NCBI GenBank assembly: GCA_039802085.1
Contig: JBDRVU010000001.1
Location: forward strand, 1-43,886
Direction of reading: 5' to 3'
DNA: 43,886 nt
Source: a candidate division WOR-3 bacterium
Lineage (GTDB): Bacteria; Hydrothermota; Tepidihabitantia; Tepidihabitantales; JBDRVQ01
The position numbers were made by a program, and so were the translations under genes. Each line of letters opens with the position of its first letter. The first letter of the stretch is position 1. Below, one piece after another: positions 647 through 27,329 of the stretch. The notes beneath the pieces are model-generated. The model was not told the origin of the DNA, searched no databases, and was given only the letters and a program-made list of their open reading frames with translations.

Positions 647-992
647 TAAATCAAAAAACCGAATACTTCGCCCCCATCCCTTTTATTCTCAAAATTGGAC
701 TCTGAATTAGAAATGGGATTGGACATTTTCTTAGGCTTTTTTTTAGACAAGAAATTGGTGATAAAATTAGACCTTTTTTCCCGAGAGAAATTGGGGGAAA
801 AATTAGACCTTTAACTTGGGGGAAAACTACCCATTAAAGTAGAGAAGGGAACTAAGGAAAAAGGTGGGAGGGGAGGTAATAGAAGAGGCGGTGGTAGGGC
901 TCACCTTAAGTTCAATCCAAAGATAAGTAAGTTATTGAAAATAAAAAACTTAAAAATAAATACCTCTTTTTAATAGGCGACTTTTATGTCGC
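647..992 (-). repeat. Copy 1 of a ~345-bp intergenic element with a phased 12-nt C(T/C)AAT array (core on the minus strand), a purine/pyrimidine-skewed block and a terminal hairpin
   Basis: ATT(A/G)G occurs at 694, 706, 718, 730(cttag), 742(tttag), 754, 766, 790, 802 and 814(acttg), all exactly 12 nt apart. The reverse complement aligns by eye over its whole length with 26339-26686. Hairpin: GCGAC(977-981)-TTTTAT-GTCGC(988-992). Confidence 0.8.
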
Positions 993-15487: not shown

Positions 15488-15518
15488 CTTAAAAACTGTC
15501 TGATTTCTAATCCGAAGG

Positions 15519-15546
15519 TTGACATTTTCTAAGATTACTTTATAAT
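15519..15546 (+). promoter_or_regulatory. Perfect-consensus sigma70-type promoter firing into the 12-nt array
   Basis: TTGACA (15519-15524), 16-nt spacer, TATAAT (15541-15546). No ORF follows within about 370 nt. Confidence 0.65.
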
Positions 15547-15568
15547 ATAATAAATTGAATAATTAGTT

Positions 15569-15599
15569 AAACCCATCCCTTCCTTAAAGGGAGGGGTTT
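15569..15599 (+). other. Strong stem-loop (possible attenuator or terminator) about 15 nt downstream of the predicted TSS
   Basis: AAACCCATCCC / loop TTCCTTAAA / GGGAGGGGTTT gives 10 bp with one A.G mismatch, followed by TATCTTTAT. The left arm CCATCCC can alternatively pair with GGGATGG at 15629-15635. Confidence 0.45.
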
Positions 15600-15642
15600 A
15601 TCTTTATAAAAAGGGGTGAAGCATACAGGGGATGGTATCGGG

Positions 15643-15870
15643 GGTCTAAATAAAGGTTTAATAGAAGGCGTAATAGAAAATCTAATTAAGGGAATGATAG
15701 AAACTCTAAGAAAAGGGTTAATAAAAATAGTAATCGGAGCAATAATTAGAATGGTAATTGTGAGTCTAATTTGATGCGTAATAATAAATCTAATCGGGAG
15801 AATAACCAAAGGTCTAATTGAGAGACTAATTGGAGAAACAATTAAGGGCTTAATCAGGAGAGGCATTGAT
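15643..15870 (+). repeat. Nineteen contiguous, exactly phased 12-nt units with a TAAT core (copy 3 of the array family)
   Basis: Units ggtCTAAAtaaa, ggtTTAATagaa, ggcGTAATagaa, aatCTAATtaag ... ggcTTAATcagg. TAAT occupies unit positions 5-8 in 13 of 19 units, and 5 more are one mismatch away. No indel breaks the phase over 228 nt. Confidence 0.9.
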
Positions 15871-15892
15871 AAACACGGTTGTATTAAATTGA

Positions 15893-15926: not shown

Positions 15927-18716
15927 ATGCTTTTTATCCTTTTCTTCTTTTCTCTTTCTTCTCTGGATTCCTCCGAGATTGGTCTCATTGAAAAATGCCT
16001 CAATTCCTATCTCATCACCCAAAAAGAGTTATCCTTTGAAAAAAAGTGGGCAATTGATTCTACCTTTATCTTAAAAAAAGTGGCTAAATCCCTTGACCAA
16101 CCCCTTTGGCTTCCCTTTTACTTAGATTCCACCATCCACCGCTCAGATAGTTTAATTGACCTCCTGCCAAAATCACAGGAGATTAGCCTCTCTTCTCTAC
16201 CCGAGATAATTAAGTGCCTCATCAACATTATCCATAATTACCGTAAGGAATTGGTACCCCTCTATCGACAAGAGAAAGGACAAGTTTTATCTCCTGAGGA
16301 ATTGGACTACTTATTATATCTCTCACCCTATCTCTTCTCTGATGAGGAGGATACAACGGACGATTACCTAAAAGGCTTCCTCCATAAAGAGTTTAACCAA
16401 TCAATAAAATTTGATTCCCTAAAATTGCCTTCAGATAGTTTCTTTGTTGTGGTAAAGAAGTTAGATTACGAAGAGATTATCTCCCAATCTATTTCCCATC
16501 TGATGCGCTTTTCCCATTACCTAAAAGGATTAAAAGTCCCCAAGGAGAAGATTGATTGTCCCGGGGTCAAAGGAAAAGTCCATTATTATGAAGAAAATGA
16601 ATTCGGTAAGGTAGTGATTGGTTCAGAAGAAAATAATACTTATTATGAGGAGTTTTCTATCATTATTGACCTGGGCGGAAATGATATCTATCACTCTCCC
16701 AATGGCGCAATTGGCTTTTTCTCCCACCCCTTTTCCGCGATTATTGATTTTTCCGGTAACGACTTCTACCAAACAAAAAGACCTTTTGCCTTTGGGGGCA
16801 GTATCTTTGGCACAAGTATCCTCCTTGACTACCAAGGGAATGATGTCTATCGTGCCTCCGAGTATTCCTTAGGGAGTACCCTTTTTGGTTTAGGGATTCT
16901 CCTTGATTACGAAGGGGACGATTTTTATGAAGGAAAGACCTTCACCCAGGGGGCGGGTTTTTATGGTTTAGGTTTCCTTTTTGATTTTGGGGGTAATGAT
17001 ACCTACCGGGCTTATAACTTTGCCCAAGGCTTTGGTTCTACCTTTGGTTATGGTGCCCTGCTCGACCAATCAGGAAATGACATTTACTATGGGGGTGGCA
17101 AATTCTACCACGAACCACTTCTACCCAAAGACTTTCGCAGTTTTGCCCAGGGCTTTGCGATGGGCTTCCGACCGGATGCCGGCGGAGGCATTGGACTTCT
17201 TTATGATAAGAAAGGTAATGACTTTTATAACGGTGATGTCTTCTCTCAGGGAACGAGTTACTGGTATTCCTTAGGAATGCTCTTTGATAACGAAGGAAAC
17301 GACCAATATCTGGCGACCGAATACGCCCAAGGGGCCGGGATTCATTTAGCTTCTGGCATCCTGGTTGACCGTAATGGCAATGATAACTACTACTCCCGAC
17401 TCGGACCAGCCCAAGGCGAAGGACACGATTTTTCGGTTGGCATCTTAATTGATAGAGATGGTGATGACCACTATTATACCTCCGGTGGTCAGGGAATTGG
17501 TTTGACCAATTCCTTTGGTTTATTTTTAGATGCCAAAGGCGATGATACCTATTTAACCCGGGAGAAGGAGTTTGGTCAGGGCTGGGCAAATCCCTCCCGG
17601 GGATTTGGTGGGATAGGTATCTTCTTAGACCTGGGAGGCGAGGATTTATATCCCAAAGACTTAAAACCAGAAGAAATAACTTATTTCTTCAAAGGCTTTT
17701 ATGGTGCAGGAATTGATCAAAAGGGAAAAAAGGAAGAAAAGGAGGAAGAAGAAGAGCCAGTTGGCGATTTAGCAAACAAAAAAATTGAAGAGGTATTTAA
17801 GGGGGCAAGCGAATGGGAGGTTGGTAGTGCCAAAAAGAGGGTGAGGGAATATCGAAAGGAATTGATAAAAAGAGATACCCTCTCCCTCAAATATATCTTT
17901 TCTGAAAAGATTGCCACGAGGAATAGTTTAGAGTTAAGGGCGATTGAAGAATTTTGCGAATCCCTGCCGGAAAAGGTAATACCTTATTTATTAAAATACC
18001 TCTGGGATGAGAGGAAGGAAGCCCGGGCGAATGTCATCTATCTCTTAGGGAAATTGAAGGTGAAGTTCGCAGTTGATTCCTTAATTTCTGCTCTTAAAGG
18101 CCGGCGGTTGCCGAACGGTAAGATAATCCACAACCGACCCCGATGGATTATCTCCGCCCTCGGGGATATCTTTAAGATTGATTCTGTACCACCCAAAGAG
18201 GATTCCCTTCTGCGGGAAAAAGTTTTATCAGTAATCTTAAAATACCTAAACGATAAATACGAACCAACCCGCATTACCGCCACGGTTGCCTTAGGGAAGA
18301 TAAAAGAAAAAAAGACTCTCCCCTATCTCATAAAAACACTCTCGGACCCAATTTTCACCTGCCGCCAGGCCGCAGAGAATGCCATTAACGATTTTGGGAA
18401 GGGGGCAATTACCGAACTCCTCTTTTTCTTAAAACCATCCGCTAACCATCTTCTTCTCCGTAGTCTTATCTCTTGTCTGGGAAGACAAATTACAACCTTA
18501 AAGGAAGAAGAGGAAAACGAGAAGAAAAAGATTAGAAAAGCCCTCATCCCCTTTCTCTCTTTTCCGAAATCAGAGATTCGCCTGGCTACCATCTCCGCTT
18601 TATCTAACTTTAAGGACGAATACACAAAAAATATCTTAAAGAACCAATTGGCAGAAGAGACCGACCCGATTGTCTTAGATAAATTAAAAGTTATCCTTTA
18701 TGGAATTAATCCGTAA
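15927..18716 (+). CDS. Large uncharacterised protein: hydrophobic N-terminus, twelve ~26-aa 'hhD-x-x-G-(N/D)-D-x-Y' repeats, acidic/Lys linker, C-terminal HEAT/PBS-lyase-like repeats
   Basis: Repeats DLGGNDIY, DFSGNDFY, DYQGNDVY, DYEGDDFY, DFGGNDTY, DQSGNDIY, DKKGNDFY, DNEGNDQY, DRNGNDNY, DRDGDDHY, DAKGDDTY, DLGGEDLY (nt ~16660-17655). KEEKEEEEE linker. The C-terminus has HEAT-like helices (ARANVIYLLGKLK..AVDSLISAL; TRITATVALGKIKEKKTLPYLIKTLSD; IRLATISALSNFKD). Confidence 0.8.
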   Translation: MLFILFFFSLSSLDSSEIGLIEKCLNSYLITQKELSFEKKWAIDSTFILKKVAKSLDQPLWLPFYLDSTIHRSDSLIDLLPKSQEISLSSLPEIIKCLINIIHNYRKELVPLYRQEKGQVLSPEELDYLLYLSPYLFSDEEDTTDDYLKGFLHKEFNQSIKFDSLKLPSDSFFVVVKKLDYEEIISQSISHLMRFSHYLKGLKVPKEKIDCPGVKGKVHYYEENEFGKVVIGSEENNTYYEEFSIIIDLGGNDIYHSPNGAIGFFSHPFSAIIDFSGNDFYQTKRPFAFGGSIFGTSILLDYQGNDVYRASEYSLGSTLFGLGILLDYEGDDFYEGKTFTQGAGFYGLGFLFDFGGNDTYRAYNFAQGFGSTFGYGALLDQSGNDIYYGGGKFYHEPLLPKDFRSFAQGFAMGFRPDAGGGIGLLYDKKGNDFYNGDVFSQGTSYWYSLGMLFDNEGNDQYLATEYAQGAGIHLASGILVDRNGNDNYYSRLGPAQGEGHDFSVGILIDRDGDDHYYTSGGQGIGLTNSFGLFLDAKGDDTYLTREKEFGQGWANPSRGFGGIGIFLDLGGEDLYPKDLKPEEITYFFKGFYGAGIDQKGKKEEKEEEEEPVGDLANKKIEEVFKGASEWEVGSAKKRVREYRKELIKRDTLSLKYIFSEKIATRNSLELRAIEEFCESLPEKVIPYLLKYLWDERKEARANVIYLLGKLKVKFAVDSLISALKGRRLPNGKIIHNRPRWIISALGDIFKIDSVPPKEDSLLREKVLSVILKYLNDKYEPTRITATVALGKIKEKKTLPYLIKTLSDPIFTCRQAAENAINDFGKGAITELLFFLKPSANHLLLRSLISCLGRQITTLKEEEENEKKKIRKALIPFLSFPKSEIRLATISALSNFKDEYTKNILKNQLAEETDPIVLDKLKVILYGINP

Positions 18717-25824: not shown

Positions 25825-26166
25825 TTACCTCCGCATACATTGGCAGAAACTATGGTAGTTGGCACAGACACCCCCAAGGATTGAGAAAAGACCCCAGAAA
25901 AGAGGACGGGTAAAAATATGGAAAAGGGTCGGCTTAGAATAGGGTAAAAGATATATCCCTAAGGTAACGAGAAAACAGCCAACAACGATAACGGTGTGAC
26001 CGAAGATAGCAAGTGCTTGTCTTCCCCCGCGCCAACCTAAATAGACCAGTGAAATACCGATTGCTAAGGGAACTATTCCGATAAAATCACTACAAACCAG
26101 TCCGTAAACTCCGAAGATAAAAACGGCGCCTCCTAAAATAAAAGTAATTAAACTCTTTGGTCTCAT
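25825..26166 (-). CDS. Small (113-aa) four-TM membrane protein of unknown function with a Cys-rich tail (CANYHSFCQC)
   Basis: The start at 26166 (MRPKSLITF) is preceded by GGAGGAAAAGTT. The track start at 26229 lacks an SD. Four hydrophobic helices. Confidence 0.6.
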   Translation of the reverse strand: MRPKSLITFILGGAVFIFGVYGLVCSDFIGIVPLAIGISLVYLGWRGGRQALAIFGHTVIVVGCFLVTLGIYLLPYSKPTLFHIFTRPLFWGLFSILGGVCANYHSFCQCMRR

Positions 26167-26197
26167 AACTTTTCCTCCGATTGCGAATCTTTTAGAA

Positions 26198-26225
26198 ATG
26201 ATACCCAATTTCTCAACCCTGTCAA
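26198..26225 (-). promoter_or_regulatory. Putative promoter of the small membrane protein gene (normal leader with SD)
   Basis: On the minus strand: TTGACA (26225-26220), 16 nt, TATCAT (26203-26198). About 31 nt separate the -10 from the ATG and include GGAGG. Confidence 0.5.
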
Positions 26226-26338
26226 ACAACCACCTAAGATGAATAGATACCTAAAGGTCTTCTTAAGTTATTAATCTTAGTAGCTGATTTAGTTCATCGT
26301 CTTTAATCCCTGTTTCAAAAACTCATATTCTCATGTTA

Positions 26339-26686
26339 GGAGACTTTTATGTCGCCTATCAAAAAAGGGTATTTCTTTCTAAGTTTTTTATCTTCAATAA
26401 TTTACTTGTTTTTAGGATAAATTTAGAGTGAGCCCTACCACCACCTCCCCTACGACCCCCTTTCCCACCTCTTATCCCGGTTCCCTTCCCTACTTTCCCG
26501 ACCAATTCTTCCCCTAATTAAAGGTCTAATCTTCTCTCTAATTTTTCTTCTCAAAAAAGGTTTAATCTCTTTCCTAATCTATTCTCTAAGAAATGGCCTA
26601 AGAAAAGGTCTCATTCCTTGGCTAATCCCTATTCTAATTTTAGGAATAGAGGGATGGGTAGTTAGGCATTCGGTTTTTTAATTTGA
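26339..26686 (+). repeat. Copy 2 of the ~345-bp element (hairpin, conserved A/T block, C-rich block, phased 12-nt CTAAT array, GGGATGGG box, T-run)
   Basis: Units from 26511: cccCTAATtaaa, ggtCTAATcttc, tctCTAATtttt, cttCTCAAaaaa, ggtTTAATctct, ttcCTAATctat, tctCTAAGaaat, ggcCTAAGaaaa, ggtCTCATtcct, tggCTAATccct, attCTAATttta. The whole segment aligns by eye with the reverse complement of 647-992. Confidence 0.85.
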
Positions 26687-26765: not shown

Positions 26766-27329
26766 ATGTTTATCACCGGTGGCGAATTAAAAGGGAAGAG
26801 GTTAAAATATCCAAAAGGGAAAATTCGTCCCACCGAAAGAATGGTAAAGTTAGCCATCTTCTCCGTTCTCGGAGAAAAGATAAAAGAGAGCAAGGTATTA
26901 GACCTTTTCTCCGGCCCGGGAGCGATGGGCATTGAGGCTTTATCCCGAGAGGCAAAAGAGGTCTATTTTGTGGAAAGTGATAAAAGAAATTTCTCTTACC
27001 TCTTAGAAAATATTAAAGGGTTAAAATCCTGCTACCCGATTAGAAAGGATGCCTTCAAGACCATTCCTACCCTAAAAGGAGAAAAATTTGACTTAATCTT
27101 CTTAGACCCTCCCTATCTCAAAGGGATGGTGGGAAAGATAATTGAAGAGATTGTTCGGTTTGACCTCCTAAAAGAAGAAGGGATAATCGTCGCCGAACAT
27201 CATAAAAAAGAAGAGATATTTTTACCCAGAGAGTTAAAAATAATAAAGCACAAGGTCTACGGTGAAACCAAAATCACCTTTTTGCAAAGGAGCGAAGATG
27301 AAAAGAGTAGTCTACCCGGGAAGTTTTGA
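26766..27329 (+). CDS. rsmD: 16S rRNA (guanine966-N2)-methyltransferase RsmD
   Basis: ITGGELKGKRL..P....RPT..MVK.AIFS, SAM motif LDLFSGPGAMGIEALS, FLDPPY. The start could be 26763 or 26766. The track start at 26715 runs through the promoter. Confidence 0.85.
   Translation: MFITGGELKGKRLKYPKGKIRPTERMVKLAIFSVLGEKIKESKVLDLFSGPGAMGIEALSREAKEVYFVESDKRNFSYLLENIKGLKSCYPIRKDAFKTIPTLKGEKFDLIFLDPPYLKGMVGKIIEEIVRFDLLKEEGIIVAEHHKKEEIFLPRELKIIKHKVYGETKITFLQRSEDEKSSLPGKF

Follow-up and report, generated by a model that had tools for sequence, protein, structure and literature searches.

Phased 12-nt TAAT arrays form a family of non-coding, directional elements in a narrow WOR-3 lineage

Described repeat arrays and the WOR-3 family

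In bacteria, short motifs repeated many times are known from sponge small RNAs (CsrB, RsmY, RsmZ and CrcZ), from the iterons of ribbon-helix-helix (RHH) and winged helix-turn-helix (HTH) proteins, and from dispersed intergenic repeats such as BOX of Streptococcus pneumoniae, REP/BIME, ERIC and Correia. The sponges are RNAs of ~250-400 nt with their own promoter and 10-20 copies of a short motif, which act as multivalent decoys. Iterons, including those of ParR-parC (11 bp) and TubR-tubC (12 bp), the omega heptads and the MetJ boxes, consist of about ten or more phased direct repeats that are bound cooperatively by protein filaments. BOX and similar repeats are modular and non-coding, with a tandem inner unit, presence or absence depending on the strain, and possible promoter activity. 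Here, we describe an array of phased 12-nt units located at positions 647 to 992 of the complete 43,886-nt contig JBDRVU010000001.1 (assembly GCA_039802085.1; hereafter the window) from a candidate division WOR-3 bacterium. By analogy, this element would work most like CsrB/CrcZ decoys or iteron arrays and is distributed like BOX/REP, but it lacks the defining properties of each. It belongs to a family that is non-coding, directional and so far found only in a narrow WOR-3 lineage, and which is explained by no catalogued RNA or repeat family.

An earlier note, made from the sequence of the window alone, had proposed a small family of noncoding elements. The family was found to number at least 12 members, spread over four assemblies, in addition to a strain ortholog; at least seven of the arrays are in another WOR-3 metagenome-assembled genome (MAG) and one is in a third, and all members were joined by nhmmer in a single orientation. 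The unit common to all of them is nnnGGTCTAATT, and two subtypes can be distinguished. Type B includes the array at 647-992 (copy 1), a second array of the window (copy 2), its ortholog L050, and L015, L029, L035 and L037. Type A includes the third array of the window (r3) and L022, L025, L031 and L047. An exact scan for the unit pattern in 185,579 species genomes (one per GTDB species) returned 35 loci, of which all seven from the WOR-3 MAG SIS170217_bin_116 are phased arrays, as against none of the other 28. A HMMER search of 1.84 billion representatives with a 52-aa open reading frame (ORF) of r3 retrieved one family ORF, that of L047 in GCA_965648995.1. The exact leader-box pattern GTGAGCCCTACCACCNCCTC gave seven matches in JGI metagenomes, all of them GC-rich chance matches; two scans of viral contigs were empty, and there was no plasmid or phage match.

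The arrays resemble sponge RNAs in their length, in the number of motif copies and, for type A, in having their own promoter, and they could likewise serve as multivalent decoys. They differ in that the repeated motif is UAAU rather than GGA or AAnAAnAA, in that they are strictly phased at 12 nt and unstructured rather than built from hairpin loops, and in that many dispersed copies occur per genome. No Rfam model matches, either at the gathering score or, as searched for copy 2, at E ≤ 5; GGA is not a conserved position of the unit, and there is no hairpin array of the CsrB/RsmX/Y/Z kind. A GGA-in-loop hairpin, AUAC-AGGGGAUG-GUAU, is present in the leaders of r3 and L047 and was considered as a CsrA site; it is not kept in bin_116, and this identity was rejected. 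With iterons, the family shares some ten or more phased direct repeats, namely 10-19 units at an exact 12-bp pitch. In contrast to iterons, the arrays are chromosomal and multi-copy, three of them lying within 44 kb of housekeeping genes; they have no adjacent partition or regulator gene, in type A a promoter points into the array, and the two strands differ strongly in composition. The analogy with ParR/TubR centromeres drawn in the earlier note therefore fails on context, as three arrays are located in a 44-kb core chromosomal contig without partition genes, whereas such centromeres adjoin their partition operon on a mobile replicon, at one or two sites per replicon. As for BOX and similar repeats, the inner unit of boxB measures 45 nt and that of the arrays 12 nt; terminal inverted modules, a stable stem-loop and sequence similarity are all missing, and the motif core is under selection.

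Anatomy and periodicity of the arrays

Copy 1 is a type B element, and its sense strand, which bears the CYAAT units, is the minus strand. It had been regarded as the inverted homologue of 26339-26686, with roughly three quarters of positions identical by eye. This was borne out: the arms 648-990 (minus) and 26342-26684 (plus) align over 343 nt with no gap, MAFFT being gap-free inside the element, and a recount gave 72.3% identity. With nhmmer, copy 1 gave E values of 1e-44 to copy 2, 3.5e-41 to L050 and 2e-7 to L015, all in identical orientation. The alignment without indels is nothing special, since the orthologs of copy 2 show a single indel per 56 substitutions, and for this reason we dropped the argument that a lack of indels indicates a strong length constraint.

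Type B elements are composed of an edge hairpin, an AT-rich 5′ part, pyrimidine-rich or mixed spacers between the cores, and ATTCGGTTTTTT at the 3′ end. In copy 1, the 5′-edge hairpin (977-992, GCGAC-TTTTAT-GTCGC on the plus strand) has a GCGAC/GTCGC stem, and this stem is perfect (GGCGAC/GTCGCC) in L050. Its 6-nt loop is flipped between copies, the sense strand reading ATAAAA in copy 1 versus TTTTAT in copy 2 and L050, with the stem kept; in copy 2 the flipped loop (hairpin at 26339-26356) creates the sole ATG of the element. The hairpin is followed by an AT-rich module (905-976, minus), which is the best conserved part between copies (77-86% identity by region). Within it, a three-way reading of copy 1, copy 2 and L050 reveals a candidate weak promoter, TTACTT-16-TA(A/G/T)(G/A)GT, directly 5′ of a conserved GAGCCCTACCACC; if it is indeed a promoter followed by a GC-rich discriminator, the conserved GTGAGCCCTACCACC block would be explained. 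The leader (834-904, minus) is C-rich and G-poor on the sense strand. Its purine-rich plus strand carries GGTGGGAGGGGAGGT at 863 and GGTGGTAGGGCTCAC at 890, and these positions, like that of the hairpin, agree with the earlier note. The leader itself is weakly 12-periodic, the lag-12 z-score over the whole element being 4.3. The array proper (678-833, minus) contains about 13 phased 12-nt units with a CYAAT/CTAAR core, arranged in a 36-nt super-unit, AAAGGTCTAAT-N7-CCAATTTCT-N9. Finally, the 3′ module (648-677, minus) consists of a GGGATGGG box, a small hairpin (CGAA-GTA-TTCG) and ATTCGGTTTTTT, the latter being invariant in copy 1, copy 2 and L050. A small hairpin and T-run close the arrays of copy 1, L015 and L035.

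With regard to periodicity, autocorrelation against dinucleotide shuffles gave z-scores of 4.2 and 5.0 at lag 12 for the copy 1 and copy 2 arrays, 3.6 and 4.6 at lag 24, and 6.1 and 6.5 at lag 36; the observed values were reached by at most one in 500 shuffles. Because lag 36 gives the strongest signal, the super-period is 36 nt and not 24 nt as first proposed, and Tandem Repeats Finder also reports a period of 36 at 736-812. A window-wide scan at lag 12 showed a strong signal solely at copy 1, at copy 2 and at ~15600-15870, the last being an array that the earlier note had not connected with the other two. The 12-nt step had been described at 12 listed positions. Nine of these (694-766, 790 and 802) read ATTRG, CTTAG or TTTAG, while 814, 826 and 838 read ACTTG, ACTAC and AGTAG and do not carry the motif; position 778 is a gap that had already been noted. 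Nine phased matches nevertheless exceed the maximum of three found in 5000 shuffles. The conserved motif is TAAT/YYAAT rather than CTAAT.

Type A elements start ~10 nt upstream of a TTGACA/TATAAT promoter (L047 excepted), followed by a leader of the form GGAGGGG...ACAGGGG and by 15-19 units with purine-rich spacers. In r3 (15516-15880, plus), which lies between rluA and a HEAT-repeat gene, the sigma-70 promoter TTGACA-16-TATAAT (15519-15546, plus) matches the consensus at 12 of 12 positions. It precedes a leader with ACAGGGGAUGG and a hairpin at 15575-15597 (plus), and an array of 19 nnnGGTCTAATn units (15640-15867, plus), directly after which comes the promoter of the next gene. The homologs of r3 are L022, L025, L031 and L047. 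Both hexamers are invariant, at 12 of 12 positions, in r3, L022, L025 and L031, with a TG in L031, whereas the arrays behind them differ by up to 41% (95 of 231 positions between r3 and L022). These two align unit for unit with no gap over the 231 nt. L022 and L025 are 96% identical over 350 nt, at unrelated loci. All three bin_116 type A leaders carry AAAAATGGGGGGAC (at ~2172-2182 in L022 and at the matching sites of L025 and L031), in which an ATG is followed by a run of six G, one base out of frame with the array; a run of five would fuse the two, so that this is either a slippage site or a coincidence.

Several other repeat systems share single features with the family. TIGR-Tas arrays have ~36-nt units, in which two alternating 8-12-nt repeats are separated by two ~9-nt variable spacers, together with box C/D motifs and a Nop-domain Tas gene (PMC12045711). 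Like these, the WOR-3 elements would be short-unit, transcribed arrays ending in a terminator, and copies 1 and 2 have a 36-nt super-unit with alternating AAAGGTCTAAT and CYAATTTCT blocks. Unlike in TIGR arrays, the 'spacers' are 3-9 nt long and not unique, and type A is purely 12-periodic with three variable bases per unit; in copies 1 and 2 the super-unit spans just two to three units, with low-complexity 'spacers' of 7-9 nt. A Pfam scan of the array neighbours and of the cluster at 33-44 kb gave no Nop match, and no UGAUGA/CUGA periodicity was read. ToxI, the RNA of type III antitoxin systems, is also a tandem-repeat non-coding RNA, whose 36-nt unit equals the super-period of copies 1 and 2, but no endoribonuclease gene, such as a toxin gene of the ToxN/AbiEii type set off by a terminator, follows the arrays here, and the units are too short and unstructured for a ToxI-type pseudoknot. 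A CRISPR array was rejected, as the whole unit measures 12 nt versus repeats of at least 23 nt with unique spacers. Also rejected were the template or variable repeat of a diversity-generating retroelement, as mismatches are not adenine-specific (63 transitions versus 32 transversions); a decoy for the anticodon loop of tRNA-Leu(UAG), whose UUUAGGA is only partly complementary to the unit; readings of the unit as a Fur box, a sigma-54 site (-24/-12) or a -10-like element, which lack key consensus bases; and explanations by inverted flanks or terminal inverted repeats.

Coding capacity and selection on the TAAT core

The elements are not coding. One frame, CTA-ATN, stays open along the arrays with the translation (K/E)-G-(L/V)-I, and one could therefore propose that they are genes for small amphipathic or hydrophobic tetrapeptide-repeat peptides, most copies (including copies 1 and 2) being pseudogenes or having unusual initiation. 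We consider this very unlikely, although some observations fit it. L047 contains an intact 81-aa GTG ORF (P0014) and r3 a 52-aa GTG ORF, both with the N-terminus M(K/E)HTGDGI; deviant units often retain hydrophobic pairs (GTC TTA, GTC ATG); and r3 and L022 differ at 31, 24 and 40 first, second and third codon positions, the third being the most variable. However, seven of the nine distinct copies lack a start or have in-frame stops, and the ORF of L047 is the only intact one among the nine: the start codon is missing in copy 1, copy 2, L022, L025 and L031, and stops interrupt copy 1, r3, L031, L015 and L029. The products would range from 21 to 97 aa. No Shine-Dalgarno sequence was read at a working distance, and the first eight codons of r3 and L047 are identical at 23 of 24 nucleotides with zero synonymous changes.

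Codon usage does not point to genes either. The 'Leu' codons of the arrays are mostly CTA, which the window genes use least among their Leu codons (7%), and the codon-usage score of the arrays is ~0 versus ~0.4 for real genes. Nei-Gojobori pN/pS ranges from 0.5 to 1.3 across the six frames, with no frame singled out. The 'Leu' codon ends in the first A of TAAT, and between r3 and L022 this base differs in 4 of 19 units, compared with 11-12 of 19 at the freely synonymous neighbouring positions, which shows that the constraint is on the TAAT nucleotides and not on the amino acids. The open frame itself follows from the motif, since the TAA of each unit is a stop in one of the two remaining frames, and by a rough estimate its stops are no rarer than the composition of the spacers predicts. 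Three word-index protein searches returned only the query itself, and Pfam gave nothing for the array. For comparison, L048 (5260-5540 of an ENA contig of 31% GC) contains an unrelated repeat of 48-nt period that encodes (E/K)G-V-I-E tetrads. It was found by HMMER through repeat composition alone, and its called product needs a non-standard reading of TGA. In its tetrapeptide-repeat ORF (P0013), the third positions are free (GTC, GTT, CTC, GTA), unlike in the arrays. A coding array was thus rejected, for want of a conserved start, an uninterrupted frame, host codon usage or a synonymous excess, with P0014 as the sole real match.

The statement of the earlier note that no ORF, tRNA or known non-coding RNA accounts for 647-992 also holds, all ORFs there being at most 40 aa long and neither a tRNA nor an Rfam family being found. 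A decayed coding repeat, which that note had named as an outcome that would refute its proposal, is not what the relatives show: no intact gene occupies the copy 1 position, and the orthologs of copy 2 differ by a frame-breaking 1-nt indel, which puts the sole ATG out of frame.

A comparison of r3 with L022 located the constraint more precisely. The four positions T-A-A-T differ in 2, 4, 1 and 4 of the 19 units, and the other eight positions in 8-13, amounting to 11 of 76 core sites versus 84 of 152 others. The same contrast is seen between the orthologs of copy 2, with 4 of 56 core sites and 24 of 112 others differing (p = 0.027). Information content is also highest at TAAT, the unit consensus being GGTCTAATT. 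The core is thus shown to evolve more slowly than the spacers and to be under purifying selection at the level of the motif, in keeping with the functional elements that the earlier note proposed. Over the whole element, copy 2 and L050 diverge by 16%, versus 13% at the third codon positions of the adjacent gene.

Active form, turnover and genomic context

The arrays have no stable fold. Minimum free energy z-scores ranged from -1.4 to +1.8 over seven strands, sense or antisense, and with neither a significant value on either strand nor an Rfam match, a structured non-coding RNA was rejected. Every sense strand is depleted in either G or C, and it would therefore stay unpaired. A Rho-loading element would require unstructured RNA with more C than G, and type B arrays, taken alone, could be viewed as an extreme rut site that terminates transcription or titrates Rho, by way of a C-rich, G-poor, unstructured transcript with YC dimers at a 12-nt pitch. 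Rho primary sites bind YC dimers, and a rut of ~70-80 nt spans the six subunits. The type B sense strand, with 72-83 C versus 44-49 G in 343 nt, no stable fold and TC or CC ahead of the AAT core every 12 nt, is compatible with this. Against this, type A arrays are rich in G, the C is largely missing from L047, and the feature common to the family is TAAT and not YC; we regard the idea as extremely improbable.

We tentatively favour a reading in which each module would be a small directional transcription unit, with a 5′ control part, a leader of skewed composition and 10-19 phased 12-nt units, closed in type B by a short hairpin and a U-tract. The unstructured RNA would display many UAAU sites at a fixed 12-nt pitch and would act as a multivalent sponge or scaffold for a single-strand-specific RNA-binding protein, which probably oligomerises along the RNA. 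UAAU sites on an RNA had been one of the options raised in the earlier note, and this option gains support because the type A relatives carry an invariant promoter. Three points of this reading are inferences: the RNA, and not the DNA, would be active, transcription of type B would proceed from the strand with the CYAAT units, and a protein would bind the product.

Several observations weigh against this reading. The consensus scan called no sigma-70 promoter in type B, where the TTACTT-16-TAnnGT candidate is weak, and the type B terminator hairpin is not kept in copy 2 or L050. L047 is without the type A promoter. No candidate binding protein was identified, and outside the arrays GGTCTAAT shows no enrichment (3 sites versus 1.7 expected), so there is no sign of a regulon of target sites. 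As the divergence of copy 2 is similar to that of third codon positions, most of the element evolves close to neutrality. Strict phasing would equally suit a protein filament on DNA, and it may merely reflect an origin by tandem duplication in a lineage poor in indels.

A DNA-level role is a serious, if less likely, alternative. The TAAT units would be head-to-tail sites for a polymerising RHH, HTH or nucleoid-associated protein, forming a filament over ~150-230 bp that modulates or insulates the neighbouring promoter. TAAT is a typical core for minor-groove or HTH recognition and so fits such a role on general grounds. The exact 12-bp phasing across 10-19 units and the unit number kept between genomes, as in the ungapped 231 nt of r3 and L022, also fit, as does the position of the type A arrays that were checked (r3, L022, L025 and L047): each sits immediately in front of a gene of the same orientation, which itself bears a promoter-like site. 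The same placement is seen for two type B arrays, copy 2 and L037, but copy 1 and L015 face convergent genes. Moreover, a 12-bp pitch does not match the helical repeat of 10.5 bp, the motif is non-palindromic, none of the arrays has a linked gene for a candidate DNA-binding protein, and the strand-composition skew and the promoter that fires into type A arrays have no obvious role at a double-stranded site. It is also conceivable, though unlikely, that a lineage-specific protein polymerises with a 12-nt footprint on UAAU or TAAT into a new ribonucleoprotein or nucleoprotein filament or ring of 10-19 protomers, for which the promoter-leader-array modules would be the dedicated, multi-copy genes or loading sites; such an assembly would have no equivalent in known sponge RNAs, iterons or guide arrays.

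Close relatives differ in the presence or absence of the elements. In relative SRR8371833, whose flanks are ~93% identical and which is syntenic over 25.6 kb, there is no array, and the spacer between rluA and the HEAT-repeat gene measures 113 nt versus 475 nt in the window. Both r3 and copy 1 are absent from the syntenic sites of L009 and L011. In L011 (1-1060), the region upstream of fur contains unrelated short ORFs in place of the gene for the type IX secretion system (T9SS)-tail protein, so that synteny breaks exactly at the copy 1 site. In this region, assembly GCA_965648925.1 is identical to the window and has a contig that starts within the copy 1 array. Further contigs start or end inside arrays, at position 1 of L008 and L010 and at L029, L035 and L037, which are three of the seven bin_116 arrays; such breaks are to be expected of a multi-copy repeat, which interrupts short-read assemblies.

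These patterns would also be expected of a selfish or neutral dispersed repeat, BOX-like or resembling a miniature inverted-repeat transposable element (MITE), with an internal minisatellite and with features such as the outward-reading promoter being incidental; this is a serious rival, although we judge it improbable. The polymorphism of r3 and copy 1, the near-identity of L022 and L025 at unrelated loci, the contigs of two MAGs that start or end within arrays, the overall divergence of copy 2 at about the level of third codon positions and the confinement to a few genomes would all be accommodated. Yet no terminal inverted repeats are common to the ends of copy 1, copy 2, r3 and L022, the comparison of the filled r3 site with the empty one in L009 yields no unambiguous target duplication, and the window encodes no transposase, integrase or reverse transcriptase. 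In addition, conservation of the TAAT core and of the type A promoter hexamers far exceeds that of the remaining sequence, and copy 2 is vertically inherited at one locus.

The arrays of the window are embedded in core chromosomal genes (feoAB, tig, clpPX, tolB, topA and the dcw cluster). Their neighbours encode the T9SS-tail protein and Fur, RluA and the HEAT protein, and a 113-aa membrane protein and RsmD; on their downstream side, the arrays are followed by rsmD, by the HEAT-repeat gene or by a convergent gene, whose 3′ end they face. Copy 2 (26339-26686, plus), with the same module order as copy 1, is located between the promoter of the 113-aa membrane-protein gene (minus) and rsmD (plus). 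It is identical in L049 (SRR27730043); in L050 (SRR32459165) the same locus has a copy of 84% identity, in which one 1-nt indel occurs. The 106 nt that separate the copy 2 hairpin from the promoter of the 113-aa gene (26235-26338) cannot be aligned to L050 (38% identity), whereas the neighbouring segments are 84-93% identical; this spacer is neither an inversion nor repeated elsewhere. The true start of the 113-aa gene is at 26166 (GGAGGAAAAGTT-ATG, minus), corresponding to NCBI protein MEO0102094. The mechanically called 134-aa ORF (25825-26229) is too long, and the TTGACA-16-TATCAT promoter of the gene sits within it. In the copy 2 array, 26 nt (26595-26620) are 85% complementary to the part of rsmD 270 nt downstream (26891-26916) that encodes the S-adenosylmethionine-binding motif VLDLFSGPG; the L050 ortholog retains just ~65%, and we rejected this pairing as probably due to chance.

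Both r3, ahead of the gene at 15927-18716, and L037 (~7590 downward) are directly upstream of genes for HEAT-repeat proteins. For the remaining type A arrays, the product of the following gene begins with a signal-peptide-like segment. The repeat of r3 gives rise to two artefactual ORFs, one of 99 aa on the minus strand and the 52-aa GTG ORF on the plus strand, and the numbering of protein accessions suggests that one extra coding sequence (MEO0102086) has been annotated there by NCBI.

In practical terms, the family explains some contig breaks in WOR-3 MAGs, and its arrays yield spurious 'hypothetical protein' calls on either strand, such as the 99-aa ORF at 14848-15147 of L010, P0012 (66 aa) and P0014. 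If the elements are merely selfish repeats, they would be a useful strain marker of modest interest. If they function as RNAs or as binding arrays, the multivalent decoys and scaffolds of bacteria, so far few in number, would gain a new motif and a new architecture that is strictly phased, unstructured and equipped with its own promoter, and the uncultured WOR-3 phylum would have a first described regulatory element.

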